Assembly: GCA_029838215.1 (NCBI GenBank)
Contig: JALGVI010000016.1
Location: 1-43,381, forward strand
Reading direction: 5' to 3'
From: Candidatus Helarchaeota archaeon
Lineage (GTDB): Archaea; Asgardarchaeota; Lokiarchaeia; Helarchaeales; RDOG01
Length of the DNA: 43,381 nucleotides
Part shown: positions 34,405 to 43,381 of the stretch, in pieces
Position numbering within the stretch: the first letter of the stretch is position 1
Layout of the letters: the number at the start of each line of letters is the position of its first letter
Notes under the pieces: model-generated
The model's database searches: none
What the model was told of the DNA's origin: nothing
Seen by the model: the letters and a program-made list of their open reading frames with translations, nothing else
Program-made: the position numbers and the translations under genes

Positions 34405-35574
34405 CTAAACGGAAAAATCTACAAACATTAAATAGAATTTTCTTAGTTTCTTGGATTCAATGATTTTATTTCCTTTTATTGAGAGTGATTTAACGAGCAA
34501 TCGTGTCGTCCGCTGTTCTCCCATGAACCCTAGTTTTCCCAAAACTTTCTCAGCATATTGTGGTAATAAAGCATTCACGATACCAACCGTTTTATGAAGG
34601 GAACGTAAAATAGTCGCAACGAAACCCTTTTTCAATTCCATTCCTTCGGGGTTAGATTCAATGTCTTCCGAAAATGCAAGATTCTGAAAGAAAGCCATTG
34701 GAATATAGCCACTAACCATGTAGATTTCGCTAATTTCCGAACTCAAGGTTGCTTTTATTTCGCCATCATCATCCCATACCCAAACGTGATATCCGAATGG
34801 AGTGTCCTTAAATTGCTCACGTGATTTATAATCGCGCTTTTCTAATGTCATCATTTCGTTCGTGTATTTTTTAAATTCCTCGAGTGTCCACGTTCGAGCC
34901 AGATCTAAACGCTTTGTATAATCATTCAAGAGCTTCACGATTGTGGGATAGTCTTCAGGCGTGGCTTCACGGATGGTTCCACCTGCCAATTCATGATTTT
35001 TCAATCTGGCCACGATCCTCGCAGCCTGGGCTTCTACAACGTTGAGGTTGCGTGCGTCACGTAGCATGTCCACGCCTTCTTTTCCCAGAAGCTTTATCTT
35101 TCCCTCAACATTTTTATTCATTACAACCATTTTGTGATGTTCTTTCAAAAATTCAATCTCAGGAGTATTTTTGCTTGCAATGGGCAGGCAATAAATGAAA
35201 TCCGCTTCCCTTTTCGCAATTCGTGAGAATAATTCTGTTGCAAGACGATCTAGAATTTCAGCACCTTCATCCCAATAATCAGGATCGATTCCGAGAAATC
35301 CAATCACGGCGGCCTTCATTGGCTCACCTTTAAACCTGCAAGATATTATTTCAGCACCTAACGTTCCAACGACTTTATCATCAACTCGGGCTTCCAGTAC
35401 TAATTCAGGATCGCTAAAAACAGAATCCAAGCTGAATTCCGTAAAAAACGCATCATAGATCGTTCCGATATCTTGGTCCATCGTATCTCTAAATTTTACT
35501 CGAATTCTTCGATATAAATCAGCCAAATATTCAAAATCCCGCGTTAACGGCTGAATTTCAACATCCATCTTCAT
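34405..35574 (-). CDS. Tandem-GNAT acyltransferase resembling N-myristoyltransferase
   Basis: Two GNAT halves. [34 protein letters not shown] and VNALL...LGKLGF parallel NMT C-domain segments. The start is probably ATG 35574 or 35568 (AGGTG SD), not the track's 35601. Confidence 0.7.
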   Translation of the reverse strand: [389 protein letters not shown]

Positions 35575-35744
35575 CCACCTGCGTGAAGCGTTAAAAAACA
35601 TGTTTCAGATATTCTAATTTTTTAATAAATTGGTTTTAATTGAATTTAAAGATATTGATTTTCTTAACGAATTATCCTTTGTCTAAGAATATTTATTATC
35701 ATTCCTGCTTTTATTAAACTAAATAAATCAGTAGGAGAGGAAAC

Positions 35745-36512
35745 ATGTCTTCAAATTTGAAAAATATCATCATCACGGGAGCAGGTTCAGGCTTTGGCAG
35801 AGCAATGGCAATTAGACTATCGGCAGAAGGATATAATTTAATCTTGAGCGATATTAACGAAGAAACATTGCAAGAAACCGCACGGCTCATAAAATCCAGC
35901 GAAACGAAAATCCTCTTACAAGCAGGGGATGTTGGAAATCCGGGATTTCTCAAGTCAATGGTCAAAAATGCCATTGAAGAATTTCAAGATCTGCACGTTC
36001 TAATAAATAATGCAGGCATTAGTGGCGATGTAATGAACATGATCGACTTGCCGGAACCAGCATTGATGCGTGTTTTTGACGTGAACTTCAAGGCTTATTG
36101 GCTTCTTTGCAAGCTCGTTGCAAAAAAGATGAAAACTCAAAAAAAACTGAAGCCGATACGTGGAAAAATCATAAACATATCCTCGATTGCAGGAAAACAA
36201 CCATTAGAAATGCTAGGAGCATATTCGTGCAGTAAGGCAGCCGTGAATGCCATGACCATCATTCTCGCAAAAGAGTTGGCACCGAGGATCACGGTAAATG
36301 CCGTTTGTCCGGGGTTTCACGTTACGGGCATATACAAAAACGATCCAAATTTGGTTCAGGACTACATGAAAATTGTAAACCAAAAAATTCGTTTAAGAAG
36401 ATTAGGAACTGCCGAGGACATAGCAAATATCGTTTCATTTCTTGTTTCAGATGACTCAAATTACATGACGGGGCAATTAATCAACTATGATGGTGGGATC
36501 ATTTTTCACTAA
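35745..36512 (+). CDS. Classical SDR oxidoreductase
   Basis: Contains TGAGSGFG, an acidic residue after beta2 (SDIN), NNAG, NISS, YSCSK and NAVCPG. Confidence 0.95.
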   Translation: MSSNLKNIIITGAGSGFGRAMAIRLSAEGYNLILSDINEETLQETARLIKSSETKILLQAGDVGNPGFLKSMVKNAIEEFQDLHVLINNAGISGDVMNMIDLPEPALMRVFDVNFKAYWLLCKLVAKKMKTQKKLKPIRGKIINISSIAGKQPLEMLGAYSCSKAAVNAMTIILAKELAPRITVNAVCPGFHVTGIYKNDPNLVQDYMKIVNQKIRLRRLGTAEDIANIVSFLVSDDSNYMTGQLINYDGGIIFH

Positions 36513-37561
36513 TGGTGCTCACGATGAACGAAACTAAAGCAAAGCATGCAACAATTTATCACGATGAAGATGTTTCAGACGAATTGGTCGAAGCATTAAG
36601 AAAAAAAGTTATCGCAATAATCGGTTATGGAAACCAAGGACGCTCTCAAGCACTAAACCTGCGCGATAGTGGAATGAACGTAATCATTGGTAATATAGAA
36701 GATGAATACAAGAAAAAAGCTCAAGAAGATGGATTCAAAGTAGAAAGCATTGAAGGAGCAACAAAACACGCAGACATTCTCATGATTTTAATTCCGGATG
36801 AGATTCAAGCAGATATCTTTGAGGAAAAAATAAAGCCAAATTTGACATCGGGTAAAACCATCGATTTTGCCACCGGTTATAACGTTGCTTTCAAGGAAAT
36901 AACAGGAATGCAAATACCAATAGACGTGGACATAATCATGATAGCGCCACGAATGATTGGCGTTGGCGTGAGAGAGAAATACCTGAGCGGGGAAGGATTT
37001 TTTAGTTTTATTGCCATGGAGCAAGATGCTACAGGAAATGCAAAGAATACTTTGCTAGGGCTTGCGAAAGCACTGGGAACCACGAAAGCGGGAGCCATCG
37101 AGACTTCTTTCAGAGATGAAGCACATCTCGATCTATACACGGAGCAGGCATTCGGTCCAGCATTTGGGCAAGTTTTAATGAACTCCCTTGAGGTACTGGT
37201 GGAGTCAGGCTACCCTGTTGAAGCAATTTTCGTGGAGATTTACATGAGTGGCGAATTTAGCTTCACGCTTAAGGAGATGGCTGAGATCGGCATAGTTGAA
37301 CAGATGAAATTTCACTCACCCACATCTCAATATGGGTCTCTCACGCGTGGCGCCCGGTTCATTAATCCAAAATTGAAAGAATTAATGGCAAAAAGCCTGT
37401 CAGAAATCCAATCTGGAAAGTTCGCTCGTGAATGGAAACGCGCGCAGAAGCGGGGAAAAGATCCAGTGGCGTCTTTGAAACAAACAGCATTACAAATGCC
37501 GATAAATAAGTTAGAACGAGAAGTCCGTAAAAGACTCAAGATGAATCCCGAAAAGAAATGA
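36512..37561 (+). CDS. ilvC: Ketol-acid reductoisomerase (class I)
   Basis: Contains IIGYGNQGRSQALNLRDSG, LIPDE, APRMIG, DLYTEQ, SPTSQYG and GKFAREW. The start overlaps the SDR stop (TAATG). Confidence 0.92.
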   Translation: MVLTMNETKAKHATIYHDEDVSDELVEALRKKVIAIIGYGNQGRSQALNLRDSGMNVIIGNIEDEYKKKAQEDGFKVESIEGATKHADILMILIPDEIQADIFEEKIKPNLTSGKTIDFATGYNVAFKEITGMQIPIDVDIIMIAPRMIGVGVREKYLSGEGFFSFIAMEQDATGNAKNTLLGLAKALGTTKAGAIETSFRDEAHLDLYTEQAFGPAFGQVLMNSLEVLVESGYPVEAIFVEIYMSGEFSFTLKEMAEIGIVEQMKFHSPTSQYGSLTRGARFINPKLKELMAKSLSEIQSGKFAREWKRAQKRGKDPVASLKQTALQMPINKLEREVRKRLKMNPEKK

Positions 37562-37567
37562 TTTCTT

Positions 37568-38317
37568 TCATTTCAAAATTTTTTTTACTGCATCAACAAC
37601 TTTTGGAACGAAATCACCCGCTTTTTTCCAGATCCGTAAATGTGCTTTGTTGTCGAACGGAGTTTCACCGAGATTCAAGAGAATCAGCTTGGCACCATTT
37701 TTAAGAGCATATTCAGGCATGTATGCTGCGGGTGTCACGACGAGAGAACTGCCAATCACGAAAAAAACGTCGCAGTTTTGAGAATGTCTCACTGCTTCAG
37801 AGATTTCTTTATCAGGAAGAGGATCGCCAAAATTCACTACACTTGAGATAATTCGACCACCACAGTGAGGACACTTCGGTTGCCCTTTTAATACAGGGTC
37901 AGTTCTATAACCATTTCCCCAGACAGTTTTGTCCCATCCGGCTTCTTCGTGGGTCATTTGACGATCGCAATCTACACATCTCATTAAATACGAATTTCCG
38001 TGAAGCTCCGCCAATTTTTCAGGTTTAATTCCTGATTTTAGATGAAGTCCATCCACGTTTTGAGATATGAGAAAGTCCAATTTTCCAATTTTCTGCAACC
38101 CCACGATAGCAAGGTGCGCATCGTTCGGTTTTGCCAAATGCCAAGGAACCTTGCTCCGTGGTGGGGGCAATCCTTTTTCTCTTCGGGTCCAGACACCATC
38201 GGGACCGCGATAATCAGGCAAACCACTTTCAGTACTGATTCCTGCACCCGTAAAAATAACTAATTTCTCGCATTTTGCGATCCATTCAGCCGCCAAATTA
38301 ACTTGCTCGTCACTCAT
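37568..38317 (-). CDS. Sir2-family NAD-dependent deacylase with class IV (SIRT6-like) features
   Basis: Contains [38 protein letters not shown], Zn ligands CVDC/CPHC, GSSL and NL. Confidence 0.93.
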   Translation of the reverse strand: [249 protein letters not shown]

Positions 38318-38405: not shown

Positions 38406-39104
38406 ATGGTTTTGTCAATGTCTCGTTTTAATGAATACAAGGAATTAGTTCTCAAAACAGCTCAGTACATGCAAGAAAAAAAACTTGTCATAGGGTCAAG
38501 CGGGAACATCTCCTGCTTAATTCCGGGTGAAAATCTAGTAGCAGTAACCCCTTCAGGATTAGAATATGACCATTTATCATCATCAGACATGTGCATCGTT
38601 GATCTTGATTTTAATAAAGTAGAGGGTCCACACATGCCATCGGTAGAAACTCGAATGCACCTTGCAGTTTACAAGAATCGACCAGATGTAAACGCCGTCA
38701 TTCACACACATCAATGCTACGCAAGCGTTTTGAGCATAATAGGGGAAGAAATTCCCGCAATTTACGACGAACAAGTAGCATACATCGGCTACGAAGTCGC
38801 ATTGGTAAAATATGGAATGTCCGGGAGCCCAGAATTAGTAGAAAATGTAACAGAGAAATTGGGAAATAATTGTAACGCTTACATCATCCAAAATCACGGA
38901 GCACTCTGCTTGGGAATAAACATGAAAGAAGCACTAAAAGCCGTTGAGGTCTTAGAACGGGTGGCAATGAATTATTATCTTGCACTCGTTTCGGGCAAAC
39001 CCATTACAAAGGTTCCCGAACCTATTGTCAACACGATGATGGGAAAATTAAGAACAGAACAGAAAAAGGAAAAACGTCGTAAGAAAAAAGTGGCTCGCCA
39101 ATAG
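38406..39104 (+). CDS. Class II aldolase/adducin family (FucA-like)
   Basis: Contains SGNIS, VTPSG, PSVETRMH, IHTH and QNHG, the Zn-binding His triad pattern. Confidence 0.92.
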   Translation: MVLSMSRFNEYKELVLKTAQYMQEKKLVIGSSGNISCLIPGENLVAVTPSGLEYDHLSSSDMCIVDLDFNKVEGPHMPSVETRMHLAVYKNRPDVNAVIHTHQCYASVLSIIGEEIPAIYDEQVAYIGYEVALVKYGMSGSPELVENVTEKLGNNCNAYIIQNHGALCLGINMKEALKAVEVLERVAMNYYLALVSGKPITKVPEPIVNTMMGKLRTEQKKEKRRKKKVARQ

Positions 39105-42772: not shown

Positions 42773-43381
42773 TTATAATTTTGCCTTGTAAGTTTCCTTT
42801 TCTTTTTCAAGTTTTATTAAAACAGTCTGAAAAACCTGTTCGTTAATTTCTCCTTTCGAAAATTGACTAATTAGAAGATTTATTTTATAATCGATATTTT
42901 CAATTTTAGCATTTAGCTCTTCAGGACTTAGACCTTCGGCTTCAGAAATTGGTTCTTTTTCAGGTTCTTGCGATCCAACCTGCACTTGCGTGCTGACTTC
43001 ACCCTCAGGTTCAGGATTTGTGGTTGTAACCTCTTCTTTTTCAGAAGTAGATGTCATTCCACCTACACCAATGATTGGTGGAGGACCTTCAACGAGAGGT
43101 GGAAGAGTTTTTGCGGGTTCTTTCGCTTTTTCTTCTTTCTTCTTCCTCAGCAGCTCTTCTTCTTCCTTCTTCCTCAGCAACTCCTCTTCTTCCTTCTTCC
43201 TCAGCAGCTCTTCCTCTTCCTTCTTCCTCAGCAGCTCTTCTCTTCTTCCTTCTTCCTCAGCAGCTCTTCTTCTTCCTTCTTCCTCAGCAGCTCTTCCTCT
43301 TCCTTCTTCCTCAGCAGCTCTTCCTCTTCCTTCTTCCTCAGCAGCTCCTCTTCTTCCTTCTTCCTCAGCAGCTCTTCCTCT
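42773..43381 (-). CDS. Partial protein: charged repeat helix, P/E/T-rich linker and C-terminal helical (SHOCT-like) domain; 5' end beyond the window
   Basis: LLRKKEEEE repeats, a low-complexity linker, then FSKGEINEQVF. A frame slip occurs within the repeats near 43241. Confidence 0.7.
   Translation of the reverse strand, partial: RGRAAEEEGRRGAAEEEGRGRAAEEEGRGRAAEEEGRRRAAEEEGRREELLRKKEEEELLRKKEEEELLRKKEEEELLRKKKEEKAKEPAKTLPPLVEGPPPIIGVGGMTSTSEKEEVTTTNPEPEGEVSTQVQVGSQEPEKEPISEAEGLSPEELNAKIENIDYKINLLISQFSKGEINEQVFQTVLIKLEKEKETYKAKL
43139..43381 (-). repeat. Coding 27-bp tandem repeat (at least 9 units) encoding LLRKKEEEE
   Basis: Units begin at 43139, 43166, 43193, 43220 (29 bp), 43249, 43276, 43303, 43330 and 43357 (cut by the window end). 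Confidence 0.95.

Follow-up and report, generated by a model that had tools for sequence, protein, structure and literature searches.

A short-form sirtuin gene in a Helarchaeales genome and its kinship to eukaryotic class IV (SIRT6/7-type) sirtuins

The sirtuin gene and its surroundings

The window, a stretch of 43,381 nt from a Candidatus Helarchaeota archaeon (contig JALGVI010000016.1), carries an intact sirtuin gene on its minus strand. The open reading frame starts with ATG, has no internal stop and encodes 249 amino acids with a Pfam SIR2 match; an AGGGGA Shine-Dalgarno-like run lies 8 nt 5′ of the start codon. The protein misses the NCBIfam CobB cut-off of 320, its best NCBIfam score being 204. 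The gene, its motifs and its direct neighbours are as follows.

36512–37561, plus strand: ketol-acid reductoisomerase (ilvC), convergent neighbour, 6-nt gap to the sirtuin gene
37568–38317, minus strand: short-form (class IV-like, Asgard SIR2b) sirtuin gene, 249 aa, Pfam SIR2
38207–38248, minus strand: GAGxS...PDYR NAD-binding motif, residues 24–37 (SIRT6 G52–R65), invariant in the alignment and placed by residue mapping
38129–38191, minus strand: short segment W43–K63, one helix and a Pro-rich loop; the class I–III/U helix bundle is ∼ 17 residues longer
38051–38062, minus strand: QNVD motif of the nicotinamide pocket, Q86–D89 (SIRT6 Q113–D116), from alignment and residue mapping
37997–38008, minus strand: ELHG with the catalytic His106 (SIRT6 H133), from alignment and residue mapping
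37862–37978, minus strand: Zn module C114/C117/C149/C152, plain CxxC pairs with a 31-residue GWD..WG.GYRT loop
37745–37753, minus strand: GSS phosphate-binding loop, G189–S191 (SIRT6 G214–S216), from residue mapping
38406–39104, plus strand: class II aldolase, divergent neighbour, 88-nt gap to the sirtuin gene

The gene stands alone on the minus strand between two plus-strand genes. A conserved operon was ruled out by comparison of 39 short-sirtuin loci, in which ilvC and the short sirtuin form no conserved unit and the neighbours track the host family only; the class II aldolase is absent next to the short sirtuin in the other loci compared. The double-GNAT gene at 34405–35601 (minus strand), separated from the sirtuin gene by two plus-strand genes, was considered as its partner in a writer/eraser module; as a conserved unit this was also ruled out, the GNAT gene being unlinked elsewhere. 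Homologues of it occur in 6/6 other genomes of the same order: three (G266, G267, G268) have the GNAT homologue and the short sirtuin on separate contigs, and in the remaining three (G240, G265, G269) the GNAT is present and no short-form sirtuin was found. The sole PDB match of the double-GNAT protein is weak (N-myristoyltransferase, E 0.9). Each of seven genomes of the order holds 2–3 paralogues, and with the same query none was found in 144 genomes from elsewhere in the class.

In four Helarchaeales loci (L104:468–1391, L105:1–867, L113:5017–5931 and L115:4996–5901) the short sirtuin is immediately preceded, on the same strand, by a gene for a Rag/Arf-type small GTPase; this is not so in the present genome or in G267. 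Eukaryotic sirtuins deacylate small GTPases, but the adjacency may be family-level synteny only. At the end of the window (42773–43381, minus strand) an open reading frame with tandem EEELLRKK / AAEEEGR repeats runs off the contig.

Contamination was ruled out: the contig has a GC content of 0.388 against 0.386 for the genome, the GNAT neighbour is specific to the order, and the closest named homologues of the sirtuin are Helarchaeota proteins (65–71% identity), one of which is 97% identical to the short-sirtuin copy in G266. A search of genome contigs for loci related to the sirtuin locus gave one true member. The host genome encodes three sirtuins, the 249-residue short form and two long forms.

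Sequence features, active site and predicted fold

A phmmer search of the PDB placed ten SIRT6 entries on top (E 5e-47, 163 bits), ahead of Sir2Af2 (159 bits), Sir2Tm (130) and Sir2Af1 (122), with SIRT7 (101), SIRT5 (85) and SIRT3 (82) at lower ranks. This agrees with the initial annotation, which had noted that the N-terminal stretch tracks SIRT6 and had quoted that stretch correctly. Judged by sequence, the lead over Sir2Af2 is small, and the telling feature is the indel. The distance from GAG to QNxD is 62 residues; it is 60–62 in the top 120 homologues (where the motifs could be parsed) and in most eukaryotic class IV matches, versus 76–85 (about 79) in class U/II/III. The very short segment after GVWT, described earlier as lacking the helical insert, is therefore borne out. 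The distance from QNxD to ExHG is a further shared indel: the protein and class IV have 18, typical class U/III 16, but 18 is also found in a long-loop group of bacterial class U sirtuins.

Class IV sirtuins have lost the helix bundle that follows GxWT (PMC11701078), and spacing, predicted model and fold search all show the same loss in the 249-residue protein; the full bundle of class U and class III (CobB) is not found, the loop being short. The AlphaFold2 model (mean pLDDT 96, calculated from an alignment that contained eukaryotic class IV rows) has, before helix 66–76, only helix 42–47 and then a loop where long forms have the bundle; structure prediction, which had been proposed as a check for the loss, thus gave the expected answer. 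Human SIRT6 (PDB 3pki, 3zg6; 35–36% identity), which also misses the bundle, was the best match in a VIA fold search with the model (Z 30.3, rmsd 1.9 Å over 235 residues). Sir2Af2 from Archaeoglobus (PDB 1ma3, 4twj) is the second-best PDB family, with 38–40% identity and similar motifs in the C-terminal half, but retains the full bundle and superposes with an rmsd of 4.5–4.7 Å (VIA: Z 28.4, 4.7 Å). Foldseek gave TM values of 0.82–0.86 for SIRT6 versus 0.69–0.74 for Sir2Af2.

All sirtuin-family motifs (GAGxS, QNxD, the catalytic HG, GxS) and the four-Cys Zn module in a Rossmann fold are present, and the catalytic residues Q86, N87, D89, H106, the four cysteines and G189–S191 map 1:1 onto SIRT6. 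Most residues of the SIRT6 acyl channel (as listed in a review) are also shared: P62, F64, V70, W71, F86, V115 and I185 have the hydrophobic counterparts P34, Y36, V42, W43, W59, V88 and V160, whereas F82, M136 and M157 are replaced by R54, S109 and K130. Unlike human SIRT6, the protein has neither the N-terminal lid nor a C-terminal tail, has no insertion between Zn cysteines 3 and 4, and reads NFG after the Zn module where SIRT6 reads DWE. Given these differences it is SIRT6-like in architecture, yet no SIRT6 orthologue; its Zn module is of the plain CxxC type, and the insertion of animal SIRT6 is missing.

The C-terminal half had been said to look more prokaryotic, which is fair by column count: it sides with long-form prokaryotes in 11 columns and with eukaryotes in 5, whereas the N-terminal half has 6 and 13 such columns, respectively. 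Most simply, the prokaryote-like columns are ancestral states. A chimera of a class IV N-terminal half and a class U C-terminal half is unsupported, since the C-terminal half itself carries the class IV states S159, N162, P220 and R228 and the wording INFGE-LP ... GSSL-V-PAA is common to many protist and fungal class IV proteins.

Phylogenetic placement and distribution of the short form

Two maximum-likelihood trees were calculated with the loop columns removed, so that the deletion could not drive the result. Tree 1 (108 sequences, LG+C20 PMSF) used class U/III as comparison; in tree 2 (89 sequences) the Zn-loop columns were also taken out and class II was added, and its bootstrap was not fully converged. 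Both were built without named SIRT7 and class I sequences; seven of the eukaryotic rows are named and most were assigned by length and clustering. In tree 1, eukaryotic class IV forms a clade of its own (100/100) that groups with the short-form prokaryotes at 99/93, or at 100/95 when two longer-loop relatives are included; below this group lies a grade of long-loop class U proteins, bacterial where named. Tree 2 sets eukaryotic class IV and the short-form prokaryotes apart from class U/II/III at 100/97. The 249-residue sirtuin lies outside the eukaryotic class IV crown in both trees and is not nested in it. The tree check proposed in the initial annotation hence came out for a union with eukaryotic class IV, but did not dispose of class U: a tree constrained to group the Asgard short forms with class U, again without loop columns, was worse by 30.7 log units at an AU p of 0.154. 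Class U placement is not formally rejected by this test, and the class IV affinity therefore rests on bootstrap, shared deletion and fold together. Three class IV-like proteins with longer loops (P0141, P0193 and P0148; spacing 84, 87 and 70) branch at or within the short-form clade and may be either pre-deletion intermediates or secondary insertions.

Of 251 Asgard genomes, 89 gave a match at E below 1e-45; two matches are long-form, leaving about 87 with the short form. It is common in families f3 (44/54), f7 (20/26) and f21 (6/6) and was not found in the sampled members of f9 (0/59) and f14 (0/19). Outside Asgard it occurs in 5/201 genomes of the phylum of a Deltaproteobacteria genome, in 5/151 Thermoplasmatota and 1/151 Planctomycetota, and in 0/151 Pseudomonadota. 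Proteins named Deltaproteobacteria make up a large short-form branch, encoded on bacterial contigs of Mb scale, and further short forms lie on high-GC metagenomic contigs. The clade is not Asgard-only; sediment bacteria are also carriers.

Several architectures were seen along the way. P0138 (408 aa, L075:4001–5227) is a fusion in which a short-form sirtuin follows an N-terminal domain resembling profilin (Pfam E 0.002, below cut-off); its locus, where another short-form sirtuin lies 1.5 kb upstream, is an insertion among ribosomal protein genes. P0121–P0123 and P0144 (481–537 aa) are short sirtuins of the bacterial-type branch with an N-terminal region of ∼ 250–290 residues, partly coiled-coil-like, and P0125, P0127 and P0132 are fusions of a eukaryote-type class IV sirtuin with a zf-UBP domain (PF02148). 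Tandem pairs of short-form sirtuins occur in two Lokiarchaeia genomes (L021 in G243:C190, and G210:C9); one copy of the G210 pair has internal stops.

It might be argued that the protein resembles SIRT6 by convergence and is a class U sirtuin of the ordinary kind that lost the same helices independently. The AU p of 0.154, the near-equal scores of Sir2Af2 and SIRT6 and a tree of the C-terminal half alone, which gave no resolution, would fit such a reading; we consider it very improbable, as the deletion is of equal length (spacing 60–62) in both groups, G38, T44, S85, S95, N108, N162 and P220 are shared outside the loop, and bootstrap is 100 in two loop-free trees. The kinship to SIRT6 is real. 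An Asgard origin of SIRT6/7 is possible: that Asgard SIR2b is the direct vertical ancestor of eukaryotic class IV, the bacterial and Thermoplasmatota copies being later transfers out of Asgard, is a credible reading, although we stop a little short of favouring it. The short form is carried by roughly a third of the Asgard genomes and by most members of f3, f7 and f21, and is sparse in the other phyla; an Asgard clade was placed as sister to SIRT7 in published work (Grau-Bove et al., 2022, bioRxiv 10.1101/2021.11.30.470311); and a tree constrained to unite eukaryotes and Asgard gains 3.5 log units over the unconstrained one. However, the AU p for this comparison is 0.54, which allows no choice between an Asgard and a bacterial donor, the large families f9 and f14 are without the short form in the sample, and in both free trees a Planctomycetota gene and a metagenomic protein are nearest to the eukaryotes (a 95/84 pair joining them at 90/61 in tree 1; 96/82 in tree 2). 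The short form may instead be bacterial, derived from a long-loop class U subgroup and transferred separately to eukaryotes and Asgard, which would make the Asgard copy a cousin of SIRT6/7. We regard this as rather unlikely. It would account for the closest long-form outgroup (QNxD–ExHG 18) being bacterial where named (genomes of the Deltaproteobacteria phylum, Cohaesibacter) and forming a grade below class IV, as well as for the large Deltaproteobacteria and the high-GC metagenomic branches; but few bacteria carry the short form and their distribution is patchy, in a set of 61 relatives the Planctomycetota copy is a singleton, and in tree 2 the bacterial branches fall, with low support, inside the Asgard grade. 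The earlier proposal of a prokaryotic sister lineage of SIRT6/7 accordingly stands as regards relationship (sequence, deletion, fold and two trees), but the lineage is neither new nor confined to Asgard, and the sister of the eukaryotes may be Asgard or bacterial.

Assayed relatives and proposed function

The protein is a fresh member of a clade that has already been reported and assayed, and its placement is largely known, the Asgard link having been published in 2022. The Asgard (Heimdall, Loki) clade of Grau-Bove et al. was well supported as sister to eukaryotic SIRT7. The present group comprises the same lineages and has the same class IV affinity, but joins class IV as a whole (in trees without named SIRT7) and, unlike that clade, has bacterial and Thermoplasmatota members. 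More recently, LoSIR2b of Ca. Lokiarchaeum ossiferum was found to remove acetyl groups from Loki histone-tail peptides and from yeast H4K16ac peptides in an NAD+-dependent reaction; it was the sole Loki paralogue clearly active on tail peptides, the others showing little activity (Cho et al., 2026, bioRxiv 10.64898/2026.07.02.735847). These authors set a LoSIR2b model beside the SIRT6–nucleosome structure and explicitly drew no conclusion on an ancestry to eukaryotic enzymes; their text mentions neither acyl nor myristoyl.

The L. ossiferum B35 genome (G253) encodes exactly three sirtuins. Only the one that is 57–58% identical to the 249-residue protein has Q94 (Q94–D97) and E112-LHG (E112–G115), and the two are reciprocally closest among the paralogues; the other two have Q105, and one of them fits LoSIR2a by N106/H123. 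The LoSIR2b label in the preprint reads QNID and the matched B35 gene QNVD, one letter off, so that the identification rests on residue numbering. The two proteins have the same short loop and the same Zn-loop motif, and both host genomes hold one short copy and two long-form paralogues. They differ in host (Prometheoarchaeales versus Helarchaeales) and in gene neighbours, and LoSIR2b has been assayed whereas the present protein is known from its sequence.

We consider it probable that the gene is the Helarchaeales orthologue of Asgard SIR2b, that the short-form clade and eukaryotic class IV (SIRT6/7/8/9) go back to a single ancestor in which the helix bundle was lost, and that the enzyme is an NAD+-dependent deacylase with histone tails among its substrates. 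By analogy with LoSIR2b, lysine deacylation that includes histone tails is its most likely activity. NAD+ would be bound by the Rossmann domain (GAG, QNVD and GSS motifs), the acyl oxygen of the acyl-lysine would displace nicotinamide, the ribose hydroxyl would be activated by His106, and free lysine and O-acyl-ADP-ribose would be released; these deacylation steps are established sirtuin chemistry. In its host the enzyme probably deacetylates histone tails among other proteins, as suggested by the orthologue and by the host histones. Seven histone genes are present, one of which encodes a Lys-rich N-terminal tail of ∼ 28 residues, and this tailed histone is a candidate substrate. Its gene (contig C112:128777–128953, minus strand) has a TTG start behind a GAGG run and a Lys/Pro/Ala-rich N-tail, and forms a divergent–convergent pair with a tail-less histone gene 200 nt away.

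The open SIRT6-type channel of the model is predicted, at about even odds, to take longer acyl chains as well. The initial annotation had treated acyl preference as a criterion for class IV, and this we found weak: LoSIR2b is a robust deacetylase, and the long-form Sir2Af2, which is not class IV, prefers myristoyl (PMC4253809). Acyl preference is therefore no marker of class IV, and long-chain activity would be no proof of class IV status.

The main job could also be housekeeping removal of non-enzymatic acyl-lysine damage, caused by reactive acyl-CoA in beta-oxidising anaerobes, with the histone-tail activity incidental. No archaeal-type histone match was found in the five bacterial short-form carriers searched, which implies that the short-form enzyme is not dedicated to histones; the host has 9 acyl-CoA dehydrogenases, one encoded 0.8 kb from the sirtuin gene; and syntrophic bacteria build up acyl-lysines that a sirtuin removes (PMC8942843). 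We nevertheless hold housekeeping as the main job to be somewhat doubtful, for LoSIR2b, unlike its long-form paralogues, acted on histone-tail peptides, and the 39 loci show no conserved linkage to acyl-CoA genes. It is compatible with the preferred reading of a SIR2b orthologue that deacylates histone tails among other proteins and differs from it only in the main substrate.

A tail-less SIRT6-like enzyme of 249 residues, in a host with a tailed histone, offers a convenient test bed for SIRT6 traits: long-chain preference, fatty-acid activation and nucleosome preference could be separated according to whether they are tied to the helix-bundle deletion or to the eukaryotic additions. The bacterial members call for caution with the label ‘eukaryotic signature protein’. 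The comparison also joins the phylogenetic remark of 2022 to the biochemistry of 2026, in that it is the class IV-like Loki sirtuin that acts on histone tails. A stronger version, in which all eukaryotic class IV sirtuins descend vertically from Asgard SIR2b and this ancestor already had both activities, deacetylation of histone tails and long-chain deacylation of the SIRT6 type, seems unlikely to us; if true, SIRT6/7 would be chromatin erasers inherited without a break from Asgard chromatin, and that lineage would be represented by the one Loki sirtuin that acts on histone tails.
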